Program-made: the position numbers and the translations under genes
Assembly: GCF_048403405.1 (NCBI RefSeq)
Contig: NZ_CP183129.1
Direction: 5' to 3' (one strand)
Source of the DNA: Escherichia coli
GTDB taxonomy: Bacteria > Pseudomonadota > Gammaproteobacteria > Enterobacterales > Enterobacteriaceae
DNA: 64,000 nucleotides
The notes under the pieces: model-generated
The model's input: the letters and a program-made list of their open reading frames with translations, nothing else
Databases searched by the model: none
Told to the model about the DNA's origin: nothing
Shown: positions 35,732-44,270 of the stretch, piece after piece
Layout: every line of letters begins with the position of its first letter
How positions within the stretch are numbered: position 1 is the first letter of the stretch

Positions 35732-38700
35732 GTGTTCAGATTACCAACACCCCGACTACTCAGCGGACTCAAATCAGCCCTACGCCCGGCGATGCCCCGG
35801 TTTAAAGTCTCCGCTTTCTGGCTGCTGATACTGGCGTGGATTTTTCTGCTGGTATGGATCTGGTGGAAAGGCCCGACGTGGACGCTGTATGAAGAACAGT
35901 GGCTCAAACCACTGGCGAACCGCTGGCTGGCAACGGCGGCATGGGGGATTATCGCCCTAGTGTGGCTTACCGTCCGGATGATGAAGCGCCTGCAACAGCT
36001 TGAAAAAATGCAAAAGCAGCAGCGCGAGGAGGCCATTGATCCGCTCAGTGTGGAGCTGAACGCCCAGCAGCGTTACCTTGACCGCTGGCTGCTGCGCCTG
36101 CAACGCCATCTCGACAACCGCCGTTTCCTGTGGCAGTTGCCGTGGTATATGGTCATCGGCCCGGCGGGCAGTGGCAAAACGACACTGCTGCGCGAGGGTT
36201 TTCCGTCCGACATTATTTATGCCCCGGAGGGCGCACGCGGCGCAGAACAACGCCTGTACCTCACGCCCCATGTCGGTAAACAGGCGGTGATCTTTGATAT
36301 CGACGGCACACTCTGCGCTCCCGCTGATGCGGATATCCTGCATCGCCGTCTGTGGGAACATGCCCTCGGCTGGCTGAAAGAAAAGCGCGCGCGCCAGCCG
36401 CTGAACGGGATTATTCTGACACTCGATTTACCCGATCTGCTTACCGCAGACAAACGCCGCCGCGAACATCTGTTACAGACGCTGCGCAGCCGCTTGCAGG
36501 ATATACGCCAGCATCTTCACTGCCAGTTACCGGTTTACGTGGTACTCACCCGGCTTGATTTATTGCAGGGTTTTGCCGCCCTGTTCCAGTCACTGAACAG
36601 ACAGGATCGCGATGCAATTCTAGGGGTCACGTTCACCCGCCGCGCCCATGAAAATGATGACTGGCGAACAGAGTTGAATGCTTTCTGGCAGACATGGGTG
36701 GATCGAATGAACCTAGCGTTGCCGGATCTGATGGTCGCTCAGACTCACACCCGCGCGTCTTTATTTAGTTTTTCCCGCCAGATGCAGGGAAGCCGTGAAC
36801 CACTGGTGTCACTGCTTGAGGGTCTGCTTGACGGCGAAAATATGAACGTGATGCTGCGTGGCGTCTATCTCACCTCTTCGCTTCAGCGCGGACAGATGGA
36901 TGATATTTTCACCCAGTCTGCCGCCCGCCAATACCGGCTGGGCAATAACCCACTGGCGTCCTGGCCTCTGGTGGACACCGCACCCTATTTCACCCGTAGC
37001 CTGTTCCCGCAGGCATTACTCGCAGAGCCTAATCTGGCAACAGAAAGCCGCACCTGGCTGATGCGTTCCCGTCGCCGCCTGACGGTTTTCTCTACCACAG
37101 GAGGCGTGGCGGCACTGCTGCTCATCACCGGCTGGCATCACTATTACAACGGTAACTATCAGTCCGGCATCACCGTGCTTAAGCAGGCAAAAGCCTTTAT
37201 GGATGTACCGCCTCCGCTGGGGGAAGATGATTACGGCAACCTGCAACTGCCGCTGCTGAACCCGGTACGCGATGCCACGCTGGCCTATGGCGACTGGGGC
37301 GACCGCAGCCGTCTGGCCGATATGGGACTGTACCAGGGACGGCGTATCGGGCCTTATGTGGAACAAACCTATCTGCAACTGCTGGAGCAGCGTTACCTGC
37401 CTTCGCTGTTTAACGGGCTGGTCAAAGCGATGAACGCCGCGCCGCCGGAGAGTGAGGAAAAACTCGCCGTGCTGCGTGTGATGCGAATGCTGGAGGACAA
37501 AAGCGGACGCAATAATGAGGTGGTGAAGCAGTATATGGCAAAACGCTGGAGCGAAAAATTCCACGGCCAGCGCGATATCCAGGCACAACTGATGTCCCAT
37601 CTTGACTACGCGCTGGCTCATACTGACTGGCATGCAGAGCGTCAGGCGGGCGACGGTGATGCCATCAGCCGCTGGACGCCATATGACAAGCCTGTTGCGA
37701 CAGCACAGAAAGAACTGAGCAAACTGCCTGTCTACCAGCGAGTTTACCAGAGCCTGAAAACGCGGGCGCTGGGCGTTCTTCCTGCCGACCTCAATCTGCG
37801 TGACCAGGTAGGGCCAACTTTTGACCAGGTATTTACATCTGCCGATGATAACAAACTGGTTGTTCCACAGTTTCTTACCCGTTACGGCCTGCAAAGCTAT
37901 TTTGTAAAACAGCGCGATGAACTGGTTGAACTGACGGCGATGGATTCCTGGGTACTCAACCTCACCCGCAGCGTGAAATACAGTGACGCCGACCGCGCGG
38001 AAATCCAGCGCCAGTTGACCGAGCAGTATATCAGCGACTACACCGCCACCTGGCGGGCCGGGATGGACAATCTGAATATCCGCAATTTTGAGTCCATCGG
38101 ACAACTGACCGGGGCGCTGGAGCAGGTTATCAGCGGCGACCAGCCTTTGCAGCGGGCGCTGACCGTGCTGCGTGACAACACACAGCCAGGCGTCTTTTCT
38201 GAAAAACTCTCTGCCAAAGAGCGGGATGAGACCCTGGCAGAGCCGGATTACCAGTTACTCACCCGCCTCGGGCATGAATTCGCCCCGGAAAACAGTACCC
38301 TGACAGTACAGAAAGACAAAGAAAGCACGATGCAGGCCGTATACCAGCAGCTCACCGAGTTACACCGCTACCTGCTGGCAATCCAGAACGCGCCTGTACC
38401 AGGGAAATCGGCGCTGAAAGCCGTGCAGTTAAGGCTTGATCAGAACAGCAGCGATCCAATATTCGCCACCCGCCAGATGGCAAAAACACTGCCTGCTCCG
38501 CTCAACCGCTGGGTAGGCAGGCTGGCTGACCAGGCCTGGCATGTGGTGATGGTGGAAGCCGTTCACTATATGGAAGTGGACTGGCGCGACAGCGTGGTGA
38601 AACCGTTTAACGAGCAACTGGCAAATAACTATCCGTTTAATCCACATTCTGCACAGGATGCCTCACTGGATGCCTTCGAACGATTCTTTAAACCAGATGG

Positions 38701-39256
38701 CATACTGGATACCTTCTACCAGCAGAACCTAAAGCTGTTTATCGACAATGACCTGAGTCTGGAGGATGGCGATAACAACGTCATTATTCGCGAAGATATT
38801 ATTGCGCAACTGGAAACCGCGCAGAAAATCCGTGACATATTCTTCAGCAAACAGAACGGTCTGGGAACATCCTTTGCCGTGGAAACGGTATCGCTTTCCG
38901 GCAACAAACGCCGCAGCGTACTGAACCTTGACGGTCAGTTAGTCGATTACAGCCAGGGCCGTAACTATACCGCCCATCTGGTCTGGCCTAACAATATGCG
39001 CGAAGGCAACGAAAGCAAACTGACGCTGGTTGGTGCCCGCGGCGGCGCACCGCGCAGTATCAGCTTCAGCGGGCCGTGGGCTCAGTTCCGCCTGTTCGGG
39101 GCCGGACAGCTGACCGGAGTACAGGATGGCAACTTTACCGTGCGCTTTAGTGTGGACGGTGGCGCAATGACCTACCGCGTGCATACCGACACGGAAGATA
39201 ACCCGTTCAGCGGTGGGTTATTCAGCCAGTTTGGCCTGTCAGACACACTGTACTGA
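35732..39256 (+). CDS. tssM: T6SS membrane complex protein TssM (IcmF)
   Basis: 1174 aa; N-terminal TM helices and Walker A (GPAGSGKTTLL). Confidence 0.9.
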   Translation: MFRLPTPRLLSGLKSALRPAMPRFKVSAFWLLILAWIFLLVWIWWKGPTWTLYEEQWLKPLANRWLATAAWGIIALVWLTVRMMKRLQQLEKMQKQQREEAIDPLSVELNAQQRYLDRWLLRLQRHLDNRRFLWQLPWYMVIGPAGSGKTTLLREGFPSDIIYAPEGARGAEQRLYLTPHVGKQAVIFDIDGTLCAPADADILHRRLWEHALGWLKEKRARQPLNGIILTLDLPDLLTADKRRREHLLQTLRSRLQDIRQHLHCQLPVYVVLTRLDLLQGFAALFQSLNRQDRDAILGVTFTRRAHENDDWRTELNAFWQTWVDRMNLALPDLMVAQTHTRASLFSFSRQMQGSREPLVSLLEGLLDGENMNVMLRGVYLTSSLQRGQMDDIFTQSAARQYRLGNNPLASWPLVDTAPYFTRSLFPQALLAEPNLATESRTWLMRSRRRLTVFSTTGGVAALLLITGWHHYYNGNYQSGITVLKQAKAFMDVPPPLGEDDYGNLQLPLLNPVRDATLAYGDWGDRSRLADMGLYQGRRIGPYVEQTYLQLLEQRYLPSLFNGLVKAMNAAPPESEEKLAVLRVMRMLEDKSGRNNEVVKQYMAKRWSEKFHGQRDIQAQLMSHLDYALAHTDWHAERQAGDGDAISRWTPYDKPVATAQKELSKLPVYQRVYQSLKTRALGVLPADLNLRDQVGPTFDQVFTSADDNKLVVPQFLTRYGLQSYFVKQRDELVELTAMDSWVLNLTRSVKYSDADRAEIQRQLTEQYISDYTATWRAGMDNLNIRNFESIGQLTGALEQVISGDQPLQRALTVLRDNTQPGVFSEKLSAKERDETLAEPDYQLLTRLGHEFAPENSTLTVQKDKESTMQAVYQQLTELHRYLLAIQNAPVPGKSALKAVQLRLDQNSSDPIFATRQMAKTLPAPLNRWVGRLADQAWHVVMVEAVHYMEVDWRDSVVKPFNEQLANNYPFNPHSAQDASLDAFERFFKPDGILDTFYQQNLKLFIDNDLSLEDGDNNVIIREDIIAQLETAQKIRDIFFSKQNGLGTSFAVETVSLSGNKRRSVLNLDGQLVDYSQGRNYTAHLVWPNNMREGNESKLTLVGARGGAPRSISFSGPWAQFRLFGAGQLTGVQDGNFTVRFSVDGGAMTYRVHTDTEDNPFSGGLFSQFGLSDTLY

Positions 39257-39266
39257 GGAGGCAGGG

Positions 39267-40619
39267 ATGAATAGTAACGGACTGACACAAACTATCGTTA
39301 CCGGCAGTGACCCGCGCGGGCTGCCGGAATTCAGCGCCATCCGCGAGGAAATAAACAAAGCCAGCCATCCGTCACAGCCTGAGCTGAACTGGAAACTGGT
39401 GGAGTCGCTGGCGCTGGCGATTTTTAAAGCCAACGGTGTGGATTTACACACCGCCACCTACTATACGCTTGCCCGGACACGGACACAGGGACTGGCGGGA
39501 TTCTGCGAAGGTGCGGAACTGCTGGCGGCAATGGTAAGCCACGACTGGGATAAATTCTGGCCGCAGGGCGGTCCGGCGCGTACTGAAATGCTGGACTGGT
39601 TTAACTCCCGAACCGGCAATATTCTGCGTCAGCAAATCTCCTTTGCGGAACCCGATCTGCCACTGATCTACCGCACAGAGCGGGCATTGCAGCTTATCTG
39701 CGACAAGCTTCAGCAGGTGGAGCTGAAGCGCGTTCCGCGCGTGGAGAATCTGCTCTATTTTATGCAGAACACGCGTAAGCGGCTTGAACCCCAGCCGAAG
39801 AGTAACGTTGAAAACGCCGTACAGACCACGGTTAGAACACTGATTTATGCCCCGGAAACAACGGCTTCCTCCACGCCAGAAGCGGTAGTGCCTCCCCTGC
39901 CCGACCTGCCTGAGATGAAAGTAGAAGTGCGCAGTCTGTCAGAGAATCCCCCACAGGCCAGTGTGATGAAGCAAGGCAGTACGGTAAGAGGGTTTATCAC
40001 GGGGATCGCCTGTTCAGTGGCTGTCGCCTCAGCATTGTGGTGGTGGCAGGTCTATCCGGTGCAACAGCAACTGTTACAGGTTAACGACACCGCGCAGGGC
40101 GCAGCAACGGTGTGGATGGCCTCACCTGAACTAGAAAACTATGAGCGCAGGCTACAACAGCTTCTTGGCGTCTCCCCGGTACAACCGCTGGAAACCGGGA
40201 TGCAGATGATGCGTGTTGCCGACAGTCGCTGGCCGGAAAGCCTGCAGCAGCAGCAGGCCTCGACACATTGGAATGAAGCACTCAAAACCCGCGCACAGAG
40301 TAGCCCGCAGTTGCGTGGCTGGTTGCAGACCCGTCAGGACTTACATGCTTTTGCAGATCTCGTGATGCGGCGCGAGAAAGAGGGACTAACCCTTTCCTAT
40401 ATCAAAAATGTCATCTGGCAGGCGGAGCGGGGACTGGGGCAGGAAACACCCGTTGAGTCTCTGTTGACGCAGTACCAGGATGCCCGTGCGCAGAAGCAGA
40501 ATATAGATGCGCTGGAAAAACAAATTAATGAGCGACTCGAAGGCGTGTTAATCCGCTGGCTGCTGCTGAAGAATAACGTCATGCCAGAGGCGGCAACCGG
40601 GACCACGGCCGAAAAATAA
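39267..40619 (+). CDS. ImpA_N-domain membrane protein, VasL/TagA-like
   Basis: ORF 39213..40619; start at ATG 39267 with GAGGAGG upstream; ImpA_N-like N-terminus (GLPEFSAIREEINKA), one TM helix (ITGIACSVAVASALWWW), periplasmic C-terminus. Confidence 0.65.
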   Translation: MNSNGLTQTIVTGSDPRGLPEFSAIREEINKASHPSQPELNWKLVESLALAIFKANGVDLHTATYYTLARTRTQGLAGFCEGAELLAAMVSHDWDKFWPQGGPARTEMLDWFNSRTGNILRQQISFAEPDLPLIYRTERALQLICDKLQQVELKRVPRVENLLYFMQNTRKRLEPQPKSNVENAVQTTVRTLIYAPETTASSTPEAVVPPLPDLPEMKVEVRSLSENPPQASVMKQGSTVRGFITGIACSVAVASALWWWQVYPVQQQLLQVNDTAQGAATVWMASPELENYERRLQQLLGVSPVQPLETGMQMMRVADSRWPESLQQQQASTHWNEALKTRAQSSPQLRGWLQTRQDLHAFADLVMRREKEGLTLSYIKNVIWQAERGLGQETPVESLLTQYQDARAQKQNIDALEKQINERLEGVLIRWLLLKNNVMPEAATGTTAEK

Positions 40620-40642: not shown

Positions 40643-41125
40643 ATGGCAAATATGAGTTATTTATCTTTGAGTGGAGAGACACAAGGGCTGATTTCAGCAG
40701 GTTGCTCAACGCTTGATTCTGTCGGAAACAAAGCACAGCCAGAACATAAAGATCAGATCATGGTTTATGCGTTAATGCATTCCATCTCAAGAAGTCAAAA
40801 TGTCAATCATCATGAATTAATTATCACCAAACCGGTTGATAAATCCTCACCATTGCTGGCAAAAGCACTTAGTGACAATGAAAAAATGGTAACATGTGAA
40901 TTTATACTCTACCGAACCAGTAAAGCGGGTATTTACCAGCCTTATTATAAAATAAACCTGTCAAAAGCCCGAATATCAAGTATTGATTTTGTCACACCGC
41001 ATGCTGTCCTGGAAAAAGAACTGGAGCCACAGGAGAGAATTGCCTTTATTTATGAAGATATTTCCTGGGAGCATACGTTAGCCGGTACGAATGCAATGAG
41101 TAAATGGCAGGATCGTGTACAGTAA
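40643..41125 (+). CDS. Second Hcp-family protein (Hcp2)
   Basis: 160 aa; Hcp-like profile (ELIITKPVDKSSPLLAKALSDNEKM...ISWEH); AAGGAG RBS; last T6SS-type gene of the plus-strand operon. Confidence 0.75.
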   Translation: MANMSYLSLSGETQGLISAGCSTLDSVGNKAQPEHKDQIMVYALMHSISRSQNVNHHELIITKPVDKSSPLLAKALSDNEKMVTCEFILYRTSKAGIYQPYYKINLSKARISSIDFVTPHAVLEKELEPQERIAFIYEDISWEHTLAGTNAMSKWQDRVQ

Positions 41126-41168
41126 TTTACTGTAATAACATAATAAATTACTATTGCGGAGAGATATA

Positions 41169-42083
41169 ATGGCTGGTTTAAGGAATAATAACAACACACA
41201 GAATGCACAGTGGGCTGATTATGTGGGTGACATTCTTCGGGGGGCTCAACCGATAAACCAGCTAGTACCTCAGCACCCTTATCTTAACGACGTCCCACTC
41301 ATTGATGAATTAAGGCGTCAGAACACTCATCATGTTATTCTCTTGACACTTGATGTTGCAAAAAAAATACTCAGCTCAATAACATCATTTGATTACATTC
41401 ATTTTATCACTACACATCCTTCAGGTATAAAAGATACACTCGCTTGGTTAGTTAACGCGGGTAAATTAATGACTGAGTTTGATGGAAATGGGAAAATTAT
41501 ATTTAACTTTAATACCTTAAAGTATACAAAAGCAAGTTACTTTGAAATACTTGGAGAGAAATATATAAAAATTACAACATCCAGCCCCTGGCTTTTAGAA
41601 AAGCTCGGTAAATATATTTTCTCTTCACGAGCGCCTCAAGTTCTGGAACTCGCTATTGGCTGGCGAGGAGCTTTATCTGAATCAATAAAAGGAGTTAAGT
41701 TCTGTATCTGGTTTTCAGTAGCCTGGAGAACCATAGAATTTATTATGAGTTCAGAGCGAGATCTGGTTAATTTTCTTGGTGATTTTTCAATGGATGTGGC
41801 CAAAGCAGTGATTGCAGGCGGTGTTGCAACTGCTATTGGAAGCCTGGCTTCTTTTGCCTGTCTTAGTTTTGGCCTTCCAGTAATTCTTGTAGGAGGAGCA
41901 ATTTTACTTACAGGGATAGTGTGTACAGTTGTTTTAAATGAAATCGATGCTCAATACCATTTATCAGAAAAATTAAAAGATGCAATTAGAGATGGACTAA
42001 AACGGCAACAGGAACTTGATAAATGGAAAAGGGAAAACATGACTCCATTTATGTATGTTCTTAACACTTCCCCCGTGATATGA
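41169..42083 (+). CDS. Hypothetical membrane protein with C-terminal glycine-zipper helical hairpin; candidate Hcp2-dependent effector
   Basis: ORF 41154..42083; ATG 41169; C-terminal AKAVIAGGVATAIGSLASFACLSFGLPVILVGGAILLTGIVCTVVL; visibly AT-rich; 43 bp after hcp2. Confidence 0.45.
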   Translation: MAGLRNNNNTQNAQWADYVGDILRGAQPINQLVPQHPYLNDVPLIDELRRQNTHHVILLTLDVAKKILSSITSFDYIHFITTHPSGIKDTLAWLVNAGKLMTEFDGNGKIIFNFNTLKYTKASYFEILGEKYIKITTSSPWLLEKLGKYIFSSRAPQVLELAIGWRGALSESIKGVKFCIWFSVAWRTIEFIMSSERDLVNFLGDFSMDVAKAVIAGGVATAIGSLASFACLSFGLPVILVGGAILLTGIVCTVVLNEIDAQYHLSEKLKDAIRDGLKRQQELDKWKRENMTPFMYVLNTSPVI

Positions 42084-42247
42084 GGATTAACTATGCGTTT
42101 ACATGTTAAATTGAAAGAGTTTTTTTCGATGTTTTTTATAGCCATATTATTTTTCCCTGCATTCAATGCTTCTTTATTTTTTACCGGAATTAGGTGATGC
42201 TGCCAACTTACTGATTTAGTGTATGATGGTGTTTTTGAGGTGCTCCA

Positions 42248-42523
42248 GTGGCTTCTGTTTCTATCAGCTGTCCCTCCTGTTCAGCTACTGACGGGGTGGT
42301 GCGTAACGGCAAAAGCACCGCCGGACATCAGCGCTATCTCTGCTCTCACTGCCGTAAAACATGGCAACTGCAGTTCACTTACACCGCTTCTCAACCCGGT
42401 ACGCACCAGAAAATCATTGATATGGCCATGAATGGCGTTGGATGCCGGGCAACCGCCCGCATTATGGGCGTTGGCCTCAACACGATTTTCCGCCATTTAA
42501 AAAACTCAGGCCGCAGTCGGTAA
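42248..42523 (+). CDS. insA: IS1 InsA
   Basis: 91 aa [30 protein letters not shown]... Confidence 0.95.
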
Positions 42524-42945
42524 CCTCGCGCATACAGCCGGGCAGTGACGTCATCGTCTGCGCGGAAATGGACGAACAGTGGGGATACGTCGGGGCTAAA
42601 TCGCGCCAGCGCTGGCTGTTTTACGCGTATGACAGGCTCCGGAAGACGGTTGTTGCGCACGTATTCGGTGAACGCACTCTGGCCACACTGGAGCGTCTTC
42701 TAAGCCTGCTGTCGGCCTTTGAGGTCGTGGTATGGATGACGGATGGCTGGCCGCTGTATGAATCCCGCCTGAAGGGAAAGCTGCACGTAATCAGCAAGCG
42801 TTACACTCAGCGAATTGAGCGGCATAACCTGAATCTGAGACAACATCTGGCAAGGCTGGGACGGAAGTCACTGTCGTTCTCAAAATCGGTGGAGCTGCAT
42901 GACAAGGTCATCGGGCATTATCTGAACATAAAACACTATCAGTAA
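42442..42945 (+). CDS. insB: IS1 InsB (expressed as InsAB' by -1 frameshift)
   Basis: 167 aa ORF overlapping insA 3' end in the -1 frame. Confidence 0.9.
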
Positions 42946-43450
42946 GTTGGAGTCATTACCCGGAATTAAACCTCTATATTCAATAATAAAAGGCTCCACG
43001 GAAATATTTTATGATTGGAGAATGTTGATTCTATGCTTCGGTTTCATATCGTTTTCCTTGTTAAATATTCATGTAATTTTACTAACAATAATAAAATCAT
43101 TCTTAATAAAAAAAACAAAGGTAATCAATTTCGCCACAGACATAACAATACAGCTAACTCTTATATTTTTACTAATAGCTATCGTAATAGCACCTTTAAT
43201 AGCTCCTTTTGTCACAGGATATGTCAATGCTAATTGTCACCCCTGCGGTAATAACACGGGGATTTTCCCAGGAGCAATCTATATTAAAAATGGCATAAAA
43301 TGTAATAATGAACATATTTCTCGCAAGGAAGATTAAGCAGTTAAATAATTAAATATTCTAAAACAAACAGTTTTTAACGCCGGATTCCATGTCCTTTCTT
43401 GCACTGTCTTTGTCAGGAACAATTTCTTATGCAAAGAATTTTGTATTATT

Positions 43451-43472
43451 GCCGCCAGAAATTCCTGGCGGC
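43451..43472. terminator. Hairpin between convergent membrane-protein gene and yafT
   Basis: gccgccag-aaattc-ctggcggc perfect inverted repeat in A/T-rich context. Confidence 0.5.
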
Positions 43473-43484
43473 AGATATAATTTA

Positions 43485-44270
43485 TTATTGATAGCGGTTA
43501 ACCAAATCTTTTACCATCGCTTTATAGGTCTTTTGCTTAAGTTGTATGATTTGCTGCTCTGTCATATCAGTCGTACTGGCTTCATTCTTGCCGGGAAATG
43601 GTGGAAGCACTTTATATTCATAATTCACCGGCGACCAGGCAGCCCACTCACCTGTAGCTACATCCACCAGCGTGAATCGCACCAGATAGCGCAGTGAGAT
43701 TGTGTTAGTCAGTTTTTCATTTTTATAATCGGACCATACTGTTGATTTCAGTGCAGTGTCATATTTTCCTGTCTGCAACGTATCCTGGTAAACAATAATC
43801 GCTTTCTGATGGCCTTTTGCCGCCACAAAACGTAATGCCTGCATCCAGTTCATATTTTCAGCACTGGCAACATCCTCGTTCTCATTTTTATCTTTGTTTT
43901 TGTTACAAGTCAGAGGCTTTTGTCTGTCCGGGATACCAGAGAATGTGGAAACAGTATAATATTTTCGCATCTCCTCCTGCATAATGGTTTCCGGTGCGCG
44001 ACTGCCAGACTGGACAAGTATTACGGGAGAATTGAGAGGCACACGAAACTCATCTCCTTCAAGCGCAGCCTGAATATCCTCCTCGGATACAGCCAGAGTG
44101 GTTTCATTACCGAATAAATCTTTGTCTGTCAGTTGCGGGGGAATGTTTTTATTAATATTACTTTGTGTAACTTGAACTTTTTTCTTTTTTTCATCAATAG
44201 AAGATTGAGAGGCACATCCTGCAAGCAGCGAGAATAATACACATATGCAACAAACCTTTTTTGAATTCAT
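43485..44270 (-). CDS. yafT: Lipoprotein YafT
   Basis: 261 aa with lipobox (LLAGC); position adjacent to aspV as I recall for K-12. Confidence 0.75.

Follow-up and report, generated by a model that had tools for sequence, protein, structure and literature searches.

The window analysed here, a stretch of 64,000 nucleotides of Escherichia coli DNA (contig NZ_CP183129.1), contains an aspV-linked T6SS cluster, at the 3' end of which three genes follow each other on the plus strand: hcp2, a gene encoding a 304-aa protein, designated tme, and ykfM, interrupted by an insertion sequence. Genes and features are as follows.

40643–41125, plus strand: hcp2, 160 aa, short-loop Hcp (TIGR03344, E=1e-60).
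41169–42083, plus strand: tme, 304 aa, 34.0 kDa, pI 8.3 (ATG at 41169, stop at 42083).
41211–41282, plus strand: N-terminal motif of Tme, residues 15–38 (WaDYvGDiLRGaqPINQLvPQHpY), from alignments A1 and A6, regex and profile searches.
41532–41999, plus strand: Tme domain, residues 122–277; limits from the published table for the SE11 ortholog (E=1.16e-35).
41793–41804, plus strand: DxxK motif defining Tme (D209-V-A-K212).
41805–41948, plus strand: hydrophobic helical hairpin, residues 213–257, closed by the conserved D260 (from hydropathy and AF2 helices).
42093–42192, plus strand: 5' part of ykfM (predicted tmi), codons 1–33, with TM1.
42193–42960, plus strand: IS1, 768 bp, insA/insB, within ykfM.
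42969–43336, plus strand: 3' part of ykfM (predicted tmi), with TM2, TM3 and a Cys-containing C-terminal tail (motif Y..C...Y.K....C).
43449–43474, plus strand: terminator-like GC-rich hairpin between the convergent ykfM and yafT (consensus match alone).

The 304-aa ORF (41169–42083) lies 43 bp 3' of the 160-aa hcp (40643–41125), as given in the preliminary description of this DNA, and its start is preceded by a GGAGAG Shine-Dalgarno sequence. The same description had judged all three genes by eye to be AT-rich compared with the T6SS core, and measurement bears this out: GC content is 0.391 for hcp2, 0.378 for tme and 0.27–0.30 for ykfM, against 0.559 for the core (tssB-vasL). The core genes are all present in the window as long, uninterrupted ORFs, and hcp2 and tme are likewise uninterrupted. 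Within the window there is no second copy of either ykfM or tme, and no DUF4123, DUF1795 or DUF2169 adaptor gene adjoins tme. The operon probably ends at the hairpin at 43449–43474; terminator-like sites of this kind are not more numerous than expected from shuffled sequence.

The start codon of ykfM (42093) is found 9 bp after the tme stop, with a GAGGA ribosome-binding site overlapping the tme stop codon, and the gene ends at 43336. A hydrophobic ORF of about 155 aa had been described directly after tme: it is present, and 155 aa long once rebuilt, but it is not contiguous, being split by IS1 after codon 33, after TM1. The element is flanked by an 8-bp target duplication, CGGAATTA, at 42185–42192 and 42961–42968; when IS1 and one repeat copy are removed, the 155-aa ORF is obtained, identical over 468/468 nt to the intact ykfM of strain MS 69-1. 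The earlier description made no mention of IS1 interrupting the immunity gene. None of 5,426 complete genomes of E. coli has the ykfM-IS1 junction: a disrupted allele shared by a lineage is thus ruled out, and the uniqueness of the junction points to a recent insertion, with no sign of long-term decay.

RefSeq lists the 304-aa protein as "hypothetical protein", UniProt/AFDB as "inner membrane protein YafU"; scans against Pfam and NCBIfam return no family match, and a sequence-profile search of PDB returns none either. The protein is, however, 96% identical to WP_000908051.1 of E. coli SE11, which stands in row 1 of Supplementary Data 5 of Fridman et al. 2020 (PMC7046647) as a member of the Tme family. 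The SE11 protein is reported there as having 304 aa, a Tme domain at 122–277 (E=1.16e-35), an Hcp 43 bp upstream and, 9 bp downstream, a 159-aa protein with 3 TM (YkfM), taken as the predicted Tmi. Coordinates and accessions of the entry, checked against the SE11 genome, agree. Compared with SE11, identity is 96% for Tme, 98% for Hcp (WP_001284199.1) and 93% for YkfM (WP_001236649.1); likeness to the validated Tme1 and Tme2 is taken from the published table, by way of this 96%-identical ortholog. Tme1 and Tme2 themselves were sought among 10 candidates of about 310 aa, which proved to be from Chlamydiales, Acidobacteriota, Desulfamplus and Rheinheimera. The preliminary description, which recognised no characterised effector family in the 304-aa protein, was wrong on this point: the E. 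coli Tme/Tmi pair is already known, its protein having been catalogued in a published family in 2020. Its proposal of a membrane effector paired with a membrane immunity protein is upheld by Tme/Tmi family membership, while the lack of a known family is not.

Tme proteins are defined by a C-terminal region, where a near-invariant DxxK is followed by a predicted TM helix and a flanking conserved Asp (PMC7046647). All of these are found in the window protein. DxxK is invariant across the 10 sequences of alignment A1, and in a set of 108 diverse homologues D209, K212 and D260 each reach a conservation of at least 90%. The Tme domain occupies the C-terminal part, residues 122–277 of 304, and the most distant homologues match profile positions ~120–280 only. 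Kyte-Doolittle hydropathy, on 19-residue windows, is at or above 1.6 for windows centred at 222–252, reaching 2.71, and the AF2 model features helices at 199–234 and 238–263, with pLDDT of ~78–92 for the block; Phobius topology of the SE11 ortholog is published as o234-256i (PMC7046647). The two small-residue strings quoted in the preliminary description are located within the two hydrophobic segments (AGGVATAIG at residues 216–224, VGGAILLTG at 241–249); the hairpin follows the pattern A216xxxA220xxxG224xxxS228, with an invariant P237 at the turn. A representative library contains 702 relatives at E<=1e-3, and PAAR fusions are found among the AFDB relatives; fusions to PAAR, VgrG or MIX occur elsewhere in the Tme family (PMC7046647). 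Association with T6SS is apparent from the hcp 43 bp upstream, from the T6SS cluster to whose end the locus is attached and from the PAAR-fused homologues.

The companion Tmi proteins are defined as DUF1240-like, with 3–6 TM, encoded directly downstream of Tme (PMC7046647). YkfM agrees with this in position and topology: it directly follows Tme and, once rebuilt, contains three hydrophobic segments (Phobius topology of SE11 YkfM in PMC7046647: i12-32o52-75i96-119o). Its relation to DUF1240 is fainter. Pfam and NCBIfam give no family match for YkfM, DUF1240 (PF06836) included, and hhalign against bona fide DUF1240 neighbours yields a weak match in the correct register (probability 12%, E=0.0024). 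The protein encoded downstream of the Salmonella Tme, for which a DUF1240 match is precomputed, shares 49% identity with YkfM (E=3e-46); in our own scan this match reached only an i-E of 0.075, at model positions 2–94 of 95. Among the aligned downstream proteins, 4 out of 10 match DUF1240 at E<=1e-3 and 7 out of 10 at E<=0.1, and residues C126, Y138, K140 and C145 are invariant in all of them.

Linkage is constant: a DUF1240/Tmi-type gene lies directly 3' of tme at all 9 distinct homologue loci, the window counted, with downstream DUF1240 copies tandemly amplified at some of them. The pair is polymorphic at a fixed locus and is also found at orphan loci devoid of a T6SS core. The tme gene is present in 2,993 of the 5,426 complete E. 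coli genomes (~55%). About 440 complete genomes, K-12 among them, keep ykfM and miss the full tme, as would be expected if ykfM were an orphan immunity gene. K-12 features the last 357 nt of tme as a pseudogene, by an ISAs1 fragment, and an intact ykfM; the relics named for this strain in the preliminary description, ykfM and yafU, are thereby confirmed. K-12 yafU is the 3' remnant of tme, and K-12 ykfM an orphan immunity gene.

The hcp gene is also part of the association. Hcp2 is the product of the second hcp of the window and is only 28% identical to that of the first (20000–20518, minus strand, 172 aa). An hcp of 159–160 aa adjoins tme at 7 of the 9 distinct homologue loci, including orphan loci outside a T6SS core, while none is found in the flanks of the other two. 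Hcp2 is 49–74% identical to the Hcps adjoining Tme homologues at six other loci; these Tme-linked Hcps are 47–78% identical among themselves and 25–31% to Hcp1. By these identities, Hcp2 belongs to an Hcp lineage which travels with Tme/Tmi pairs, and the occurrence of this dedicated lineage at 7 of the 9 loci lends indirect support to loading of Tme through Hcp. That Tme is "Hcp-borne", as first proposed, we infer from gene linkage, strengthened by the co-inherited Hcp lineage. At 34.0 kDa, Tme falls within the range of known Hcp cargo, the largest known cargo of Hcp1 being Tse3 with 44.4 kDa. Hcp loading is no rule for the family, since two of the nine loci have no hcp and other members are fused to PAAR, VgrG or MIX.

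The N-terminal motif of 24 residues is kept in an Enterobacterales subclade of Tme, even where identity elsewhere in the protein is ~35%. A search of limited reach, with a 62-residue profile, found it shared with no other toxin type: every match was either a short remnant of the N-terminus or a Tme-N::Tmi fusion, from Enterobacterales. A modular delivery domain common to other toxins is thus unsupported by this search. One may go further and see in the Hcp2 lineage, the Tme clade and Tmi a self-contained, mobile "tube-cargo cassette", with Hcp2 as a private chaperone and carrier and the motif as Hcp-loading signal; W.DY.GD.LRG..PINQL.PQH.Y would then be a sequence-defined signal of a kind so far undescribed for Hcp cargo. 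This extension is speculative and must be considered unlikely. Two observations speak against the motif as a loading signal: homologue P0036 has no N-terminal motif and yet a linked Hcp, and the search found the motif on no other toxin type.

Taken together, hcp2, tme and ykfM very probably form a Tme/Tmi effector-immunity cassette at the 3' end of the T6SS cluster, the 304-aa protein being very likely a toxin which damages the membranes of rivals and is paired with an immunity protein. Tme1 and Tme2 are secreted by T6SS; their toxicity is confined to the periplasm, the cells they act on are depolarised and made permeable, and the cognate Tmi alone neutralises them (PMC7046647). If the homologous pairs Tme1/Tmi1 and Tme2/Tmi2 of Vibrio parahaemolyticus are taken as the model, the 34-kDa E. 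coli Tme would be a load of the T6SS tube, its most probable place being within or on rings of Hcp2, the dedicated short-loop protein whose gene lies directly upstream; once the tube has been shot into an adjacent Gram-negative bacterium, Tme would be freed in the periplasm. There the C-terminal domain, with DxxK, hydrophobic hairpin and flanking Asp, would insert into the inner membrane, dissipating the membrane potential and making the membrane permeable. YkfM, predicted as a 3-TM inner-membrane protein with its Cys tail facing the periplasm, would be the cognate Tmi, protecting sister cells. Secretion, loading route, toxicity and immunity are proposed for the E. coli proteins by homology, and the label "pore-forming", used in the preliminary description, is likewise an extrapolation from Vibrio Tme1 and Tme2; a literature search found no experiment on an E. 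coli member of the family.

The state of the cassette in the source strain deserves a separate evaluation. The module consists of an intact toxin gene and a broken immunity gene, a combination unexpected for an active system; with immunity disrupted, the cassette is either silent or a liability to the strain. It is a distinct possibility, if not a probable one, that the cassette is here a silent or decaying relic, where H-NS silences the cluster, disruption of ykfM by IS1 is neutral and no toxin is deployed. The interruption of ykfM after TM1 fits with this, as does a GC content of 0.27–0.39, typical of H-NS targets. The homologous aspV cluster of EHEC is poorly transcribed (RPKM 5.7, compared to a genome mean of 198) and repressed by H-NS, hcp-2 being raised 60-fold in delta-hns; deletion relics, moreover, are common, as shown by the ~440 genomes mentioned above. 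On the other hand no interruption affects tme, hcp2 or any core ORF of the T6SS in the window, all of which are long, and the unique, hence recent, IS1 junction gives no sign of long-term decay. A relic would, in any case, be compatible with the Tme/Tmi identity of the genes. The cassette could also be real and its effector carried by a VgrG/PAAR spike or an adaptor, hcp2 being just a second tube gene. Fusions of other Tme proteins to PAAR, VgrG or MIX, the two loci without a nearby hcp and a size of 34 kDa, exceeding that of most Hcp cargo, speak for such a route, and effectors with TM helices often need spike-associated chaperones. It is nevertheless rather unlikely: this Tme clade is inherited together with an Hcp lineage of its own, even at orphan loci where the flanks contain no vgrG, PAAR or adaptor, none of the three adaptor gene types adjoins tme in the window, and 34 kDa is less than the 44.4 kDa of Tse3.

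Two other explanations dispense with an antibacterial toxin. The 304-aa protein may be a membrane-anchored T6SS accessory or housekeeping protein, unrelated to YkfM, as could be suggested by Pfam and NCBIfam scans in which neither an enzymatic nor a toxin domain appears, by the names of some database relatives ("ImpA domain-containing", "inner membrane protein") and by the stress-lethality phenotype of K-12 ykfM. This can be given hardly any credence, as orphan loci devoid of a T6SS core also have the pair, which is polymorphic at a fixed locus, downstream DUF1240 copies are found in tandem, as is often the case for immunity genes, PAAR fusions exist, and the validated family members are toxins. 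Tme might, alternatively, hit mainly the membranes of eukaryotic hosts, with a different role for YkfM. T6SS clusters at the aspV locus are linked to virulence, and that of EHEC shows induction in macrophages and has a part in virulence; yet a cognate bacterial membrane protein, polytopic and encoded in tight linkage downstream, is the signature of an antibacterial effector, the targets of Tme1 and Tme2 are bacteria, in whose periplasm they act, and strains without T6SS still retain an orphan ykfM, which makes a host target very improbable.

For the preferred reading, that of an antibacterial Tme/Tmi cassette, publication in 2020 already covered the toxin family, the disruption of membranes by its members and the DUF1240-like immunity, and the gain is one of annotation rather than new biology. 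A gene present in ~55% of complete E. coli genomes is still a "hypothetical protein" in RefSeq, and two K-12 y-genes receive a working annotation, yafU as a T6SS toxin remnant and ykfM as an orphan immunity gene. Strains without ykfM, or with the IS1-disrupted allele, are predicted to be sensitive to Tme-armed E. coli.

Among known systems, Vibrio parahaemolyticus Tme1/Tmi1 and Tme2/Tmi2 (PMC7046647, Nat Commun 11:1085) share with the E. coli pair the C-terminal DxxK, TM segment and flanking Asp, the downstream gene for a multi-TM DUF1240-like protein and the association with T6SS genes. The E. coli clade differs in its N-terminal half, which bears the conserved 24-residue motif of its own, in the stretch ahead of the helices, which deviates from "GYAGLRRILxGTRY", the consensus of the family, and in having tme behind a dedicated hcp, unlike Vibrio Tme at T6SS1-associated loci. 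Tse4/Tsi4 of Pseudomonas aeruginosa is similar in that Tse4 is a small T6SS effector with TM helices, is rich in small residues and hits the inner membrane from the periplasm; Tse4 is an ion-selective pore former, stabilised and carried by Hcp1, whereas for E. coli Tme a dependence on Hcp is suggested by gene linkage, and the sizes differ (19 kDa against 34 kDa), a sequence relationship being undetected. Ssp4 and Ssp6 of Serratia marcescens are also Hcp-dependent, ion-selective pore formers with small downstream immunity genes, sometimes next to hcp (PMC12669606); as the family to which Tme belongs they are rejected, no homology being detected and the Ssp4 paper containing neither Tme nor DUF1240 (PMC12669606). 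Finally, VasX/TsiV2 of Vibrio cholerae features a colicin-like pore former, which causes depolarisation from the periplasm as Tme1 and Tme2 do: VasX was the positive control in PMC7046647, where its phenotype was the same as that of both Tme proteins.

The T6SS cluster of the window contains every core gene, each as a long ORF, and adjoins yafT, tRNA-Asp, dnaQ and rnhA; on its minus-strand side it carries hcp1, vgrG and an Rhs gene. The module studied lies at the other end, as follows.

11337-12458, minus: ISAs1 transposase, after the 125-aa ORF
12694-13071, minus: 125-aa ORF without family, beside the Rhs gene
20000-20518, minus: hcp1, 172 aa
21215, plus: start of tssB, first of the T6SS core run, followed by tssC/E/F/G, tagH, tssJ/K/L, clpV, vasI and tssA
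35732-39256, plus: tssM, T6SS core
39213-40619, plus: VasL-domain gene, directly 5' of hcp2
40643-41125, plus: hcp2, 160 aa (TIGR03344, E=1e-60)
41169-42083, plus: tme, the 304-aa ORF, 43 bp 3' of hcp2, with GGAGAG upstream
42093, plus: ATG of ykfM, a hydrophobic gene, 9 bp past the tme stop
42185-42192 and 42961-42968: 8-bp target duplication CGGAATTA, flanking IS1
42193-42960: complete IS1, 768 bp, inside ykfM after codon 33 (after TM1)
43485-44270, minus: yafT, lipoprotein gene, GC 0.415

The spacing, lengths and motif strings of the preliminary description were all correct when checked in the window. Its impression that the three genes are AT-rich was borne out by measured GC contents: 0.391 for hcp2, 0.378 for the 304-aa gene and 0.27-0.30 for ykfM, against 0.559 for the T6SS core.

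Pfam and NCBIfam scans of the 304-aa protein gave no match, and a first homology search returned close enterobacterial relatives only. The Salmonella homologue occupies the same site, in the order VasL, hcp, homologue, then yafT and dnaQ; the Rahnella homologue is found at an orphan locus. Each has an adjacent hcp, and in each the next gene downstream has a Pfam DUF1240 match on record. Tmi proteins, the cognate immunity partners of type VI membrane-disrupting effectors (Tme), have been described as "DUF1240 or DUF1240-like", while Tme proteins are defined by a nearly invariant DxxK, a TM helix following it and a flanking Asp, all C-terminal (Fridman et al. 2020, PMC7046647). Alignment of the 304-aa protein with close relatives shows no variation at D209-V-A-K212 or D260; D209, K212 and D260 also belong to the very few columns that >=90% of 108 homologues keep, at identities as low as 15-25%. 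The stretch from DxxK to D260 contains two hydrophobic segments (213-233 and 236-257) that meet at a turn marked by an invariant Pro. An exhaustive profile search of a representative library found 702 relatives (E<=1e-3), most of which align to positions ~120-280 only, in agreement with the published Tme limits.

The first row of Supplementary Data 5 reports E. coli SE11 WP_000908051.1 (304 aa, Tme domain 122-277, E=1.16e-35), with Hcp WP_001284199.1 (160 aa) 43 bp upstream and WP_001236649.1 (159 aa, 3 TM) 9 bp downstream (PMC7046647). The three accessions and their layout were confirmed on the SE11 chromosome; the window proteins are 96%, 98% (hcp2) and 93% (YkfM) identical to them, respectively. 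The portion of Supplementary Data 5 considered has 1,254 E. coli rows and 2,508 "Hcp" strings, consistent, within that portion, with an Hcp upstream in each of these rows. Judged by its sequence, the hcp2-linked pair had already been catalogued as Tme/Tmi; in the window its immunity gene is disrupted by IS1. The kind of module initially proposed, an effector with its immunity protein, was right, but the pair is not novel, and the toxin does belong to a characterised family, its SE11 ortholog being listed in PMC7046647. The Ssp4 pore-former family is a separate one and was ruled out. Literature searches on the Tme/Tmi family, on ykfM and yafU, on the accessions and on the aspV-linked T6SS found no experiments with the E. 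coli member.

For YkfM, hydropathy indicates three hydrophobic segments, and in a published topology prediction the Cys-containing C-terminal tail is periplasmic (PMC7046647); in position and topology it agrees with a Tmi, and by sequence it is a candidate DUF1240-like protein. A PF06836 (DUF1240) scan gave no direct match, and profile-profile comparison with clear DUF1240 neighbours gave a weak one (probability 12%). A full-length alignment of YkfM with the protein whose gene follows Salmonella tme shows 49% identity (E=3e-46); that Salmonella protein itself reaches only i-E 0.075 against DUF1240. Among ten aligned downstream proteins, YkfM included, DUF1240 is matched by four at E<=1e-3 and by seven at E<=0.1; C126, Y138, K140 and C145 are invariant in all ten.

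Nine distinct homologue loci, the window among them, were compared. In all nine, the tme homologue is directly followed by a gene with a DUF1240 match on record, or by two or three such genes; in seven, a 159-160-aa hcp is adjacent, on either strand and in some cases without a T6SS core nearby. Among themselves the linked Hcps share 47-78% identity, against 25-31% with Hcp1 of the window (28% for hcp2), whose 9-residue loop insertion they lack. This linkage holds even between Tme proteins only 23-37% identical. We infer that Tme would be loaded in an Hcp-dependent way, co-inheritance being the best evidence available; at 34.0 kDa, Tme falls within the size range of known Hcp cargo (Tse3, 44.4 kDa).

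A conserved N-terminal motif might be thought to mediate such loading. In an Enterobacterales subclade, residues 15-38 (W.DY.GD.LRG..PINQL.PQH.Y) are far more strongly conserved than the remainder of Tme, and other alleles occupying the chromosomal site of tme, P0020 (329 aa) among them, retain the motif, the rest being ~35% identical. The hits of a motif-profile search, however, were all either short remnants of the N-terminus or Tme-N::Tmi fusions (Yersinia, Photorhabdus, Xenorhabdus, Serratia, Morganella), and the homologue P0036 has a linked Hcp without the motif. The motif is therefore not claimed as a loading signal, and it is rather improbable that it would serve as one within a self-contained tube-cargo cassette.

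Removal of IS1 and one repeat from ykfM restores a 155-aa ORF that matches the uninterrupted gene of strain MS 69-1 at 468/468 nucleotides. The IS1 junction is absent from all 5,426 complete E. coli genomes searched, indicating a recent, strain-specific insertion; IS1 is found near ykfM, at other positions, in several other strains. The toxin gene, like each T6SS core ORF, is still long and unbroken, and the window has no second ykfM copy. A cell can tolerate an intact toxin whose immunity gene is disrupted, provided that the cluster is silent. Strong H-NS repression has been published for the homologous aspV cluster of EHEC, and the AT-richness of the cassette fits such repression.

Among the 5,426 genomes, 2,993 carry the region; at >=80% coverage, the tme region is found in 2,561, hcp2 in 2,550 and the 3' part of ykfM in 2,999, leaving ~440 genomes with ykfM but without complete tme. 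K-12 belongs to this group, and its supposed relics were confirmed: in MG1655 (L015, 2225-3346), "yafU" consists of the final 357 nt of tme, fused to a truncated ISAs1 transposase, and the adjoining ykfM is intact (159 aa). The presence of ykfM without tme suggests an orphan immunity gene, kept after T6SS loss. The remaining value of the analysis lies in the annotation of K-12 yafU and ykfM, and in a candidate dedicated Hcp carrier for Tme.

In E. coli, Salmonella and one metagenomic relative, yafT, variously annotated as "aminopeptidase", "lipoprotein" or "hypothetical", separates the cassette from tRNA-Asp. The minus-strand block (11337-20518) encodes Hcp1 (172 aa), VgrG (713 aa) and an Rhs core protein (1,500 aa), in which Rhs core profiles stop at residue 1257. 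The neighbouring 125-aa ORF probably encodes the immunity protein for Rhs; if so, a second, spike-borne effector module would reside within the same T6SS cluster.

P0010 (295 aa, source "eukprot", a eukaryote-labelled proteome), with a Pfam Hcp match and 87% identical to E. coli Tme across 79% of the query, is almost certainly a bacterial contamination or a mis-joined gene model. Two further proteins, P0102 (275 aa) and P0197 (107 aa), join the motif-bearing N-terminus of Tme in frame to a Tmi/DUF1240-like membrane protein; they probably arose by deletions that took out the toxin domain. At two loci (L014, 5860-7140; L019, 4957-5775) a single Tme gene is followed by two or three tandem genes with DUF1240 matches, an immunity-gene amplification or orphan-immunity array. 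Finally, the Salmonella enterica locus (L001, 7586-8095 and 8555-9010) has, downstream of its Tme/Tmi pair, another Tme, truncated to 169 aa, which shares the N-terminal motif but continues in the "P0019/P0020-type" manner; the gene after it likewise has a recorded DUF1240 match. The two resemble a displaced toxin remnant and its immunity gene, an arrangement seen in polymorphic toxin loci.
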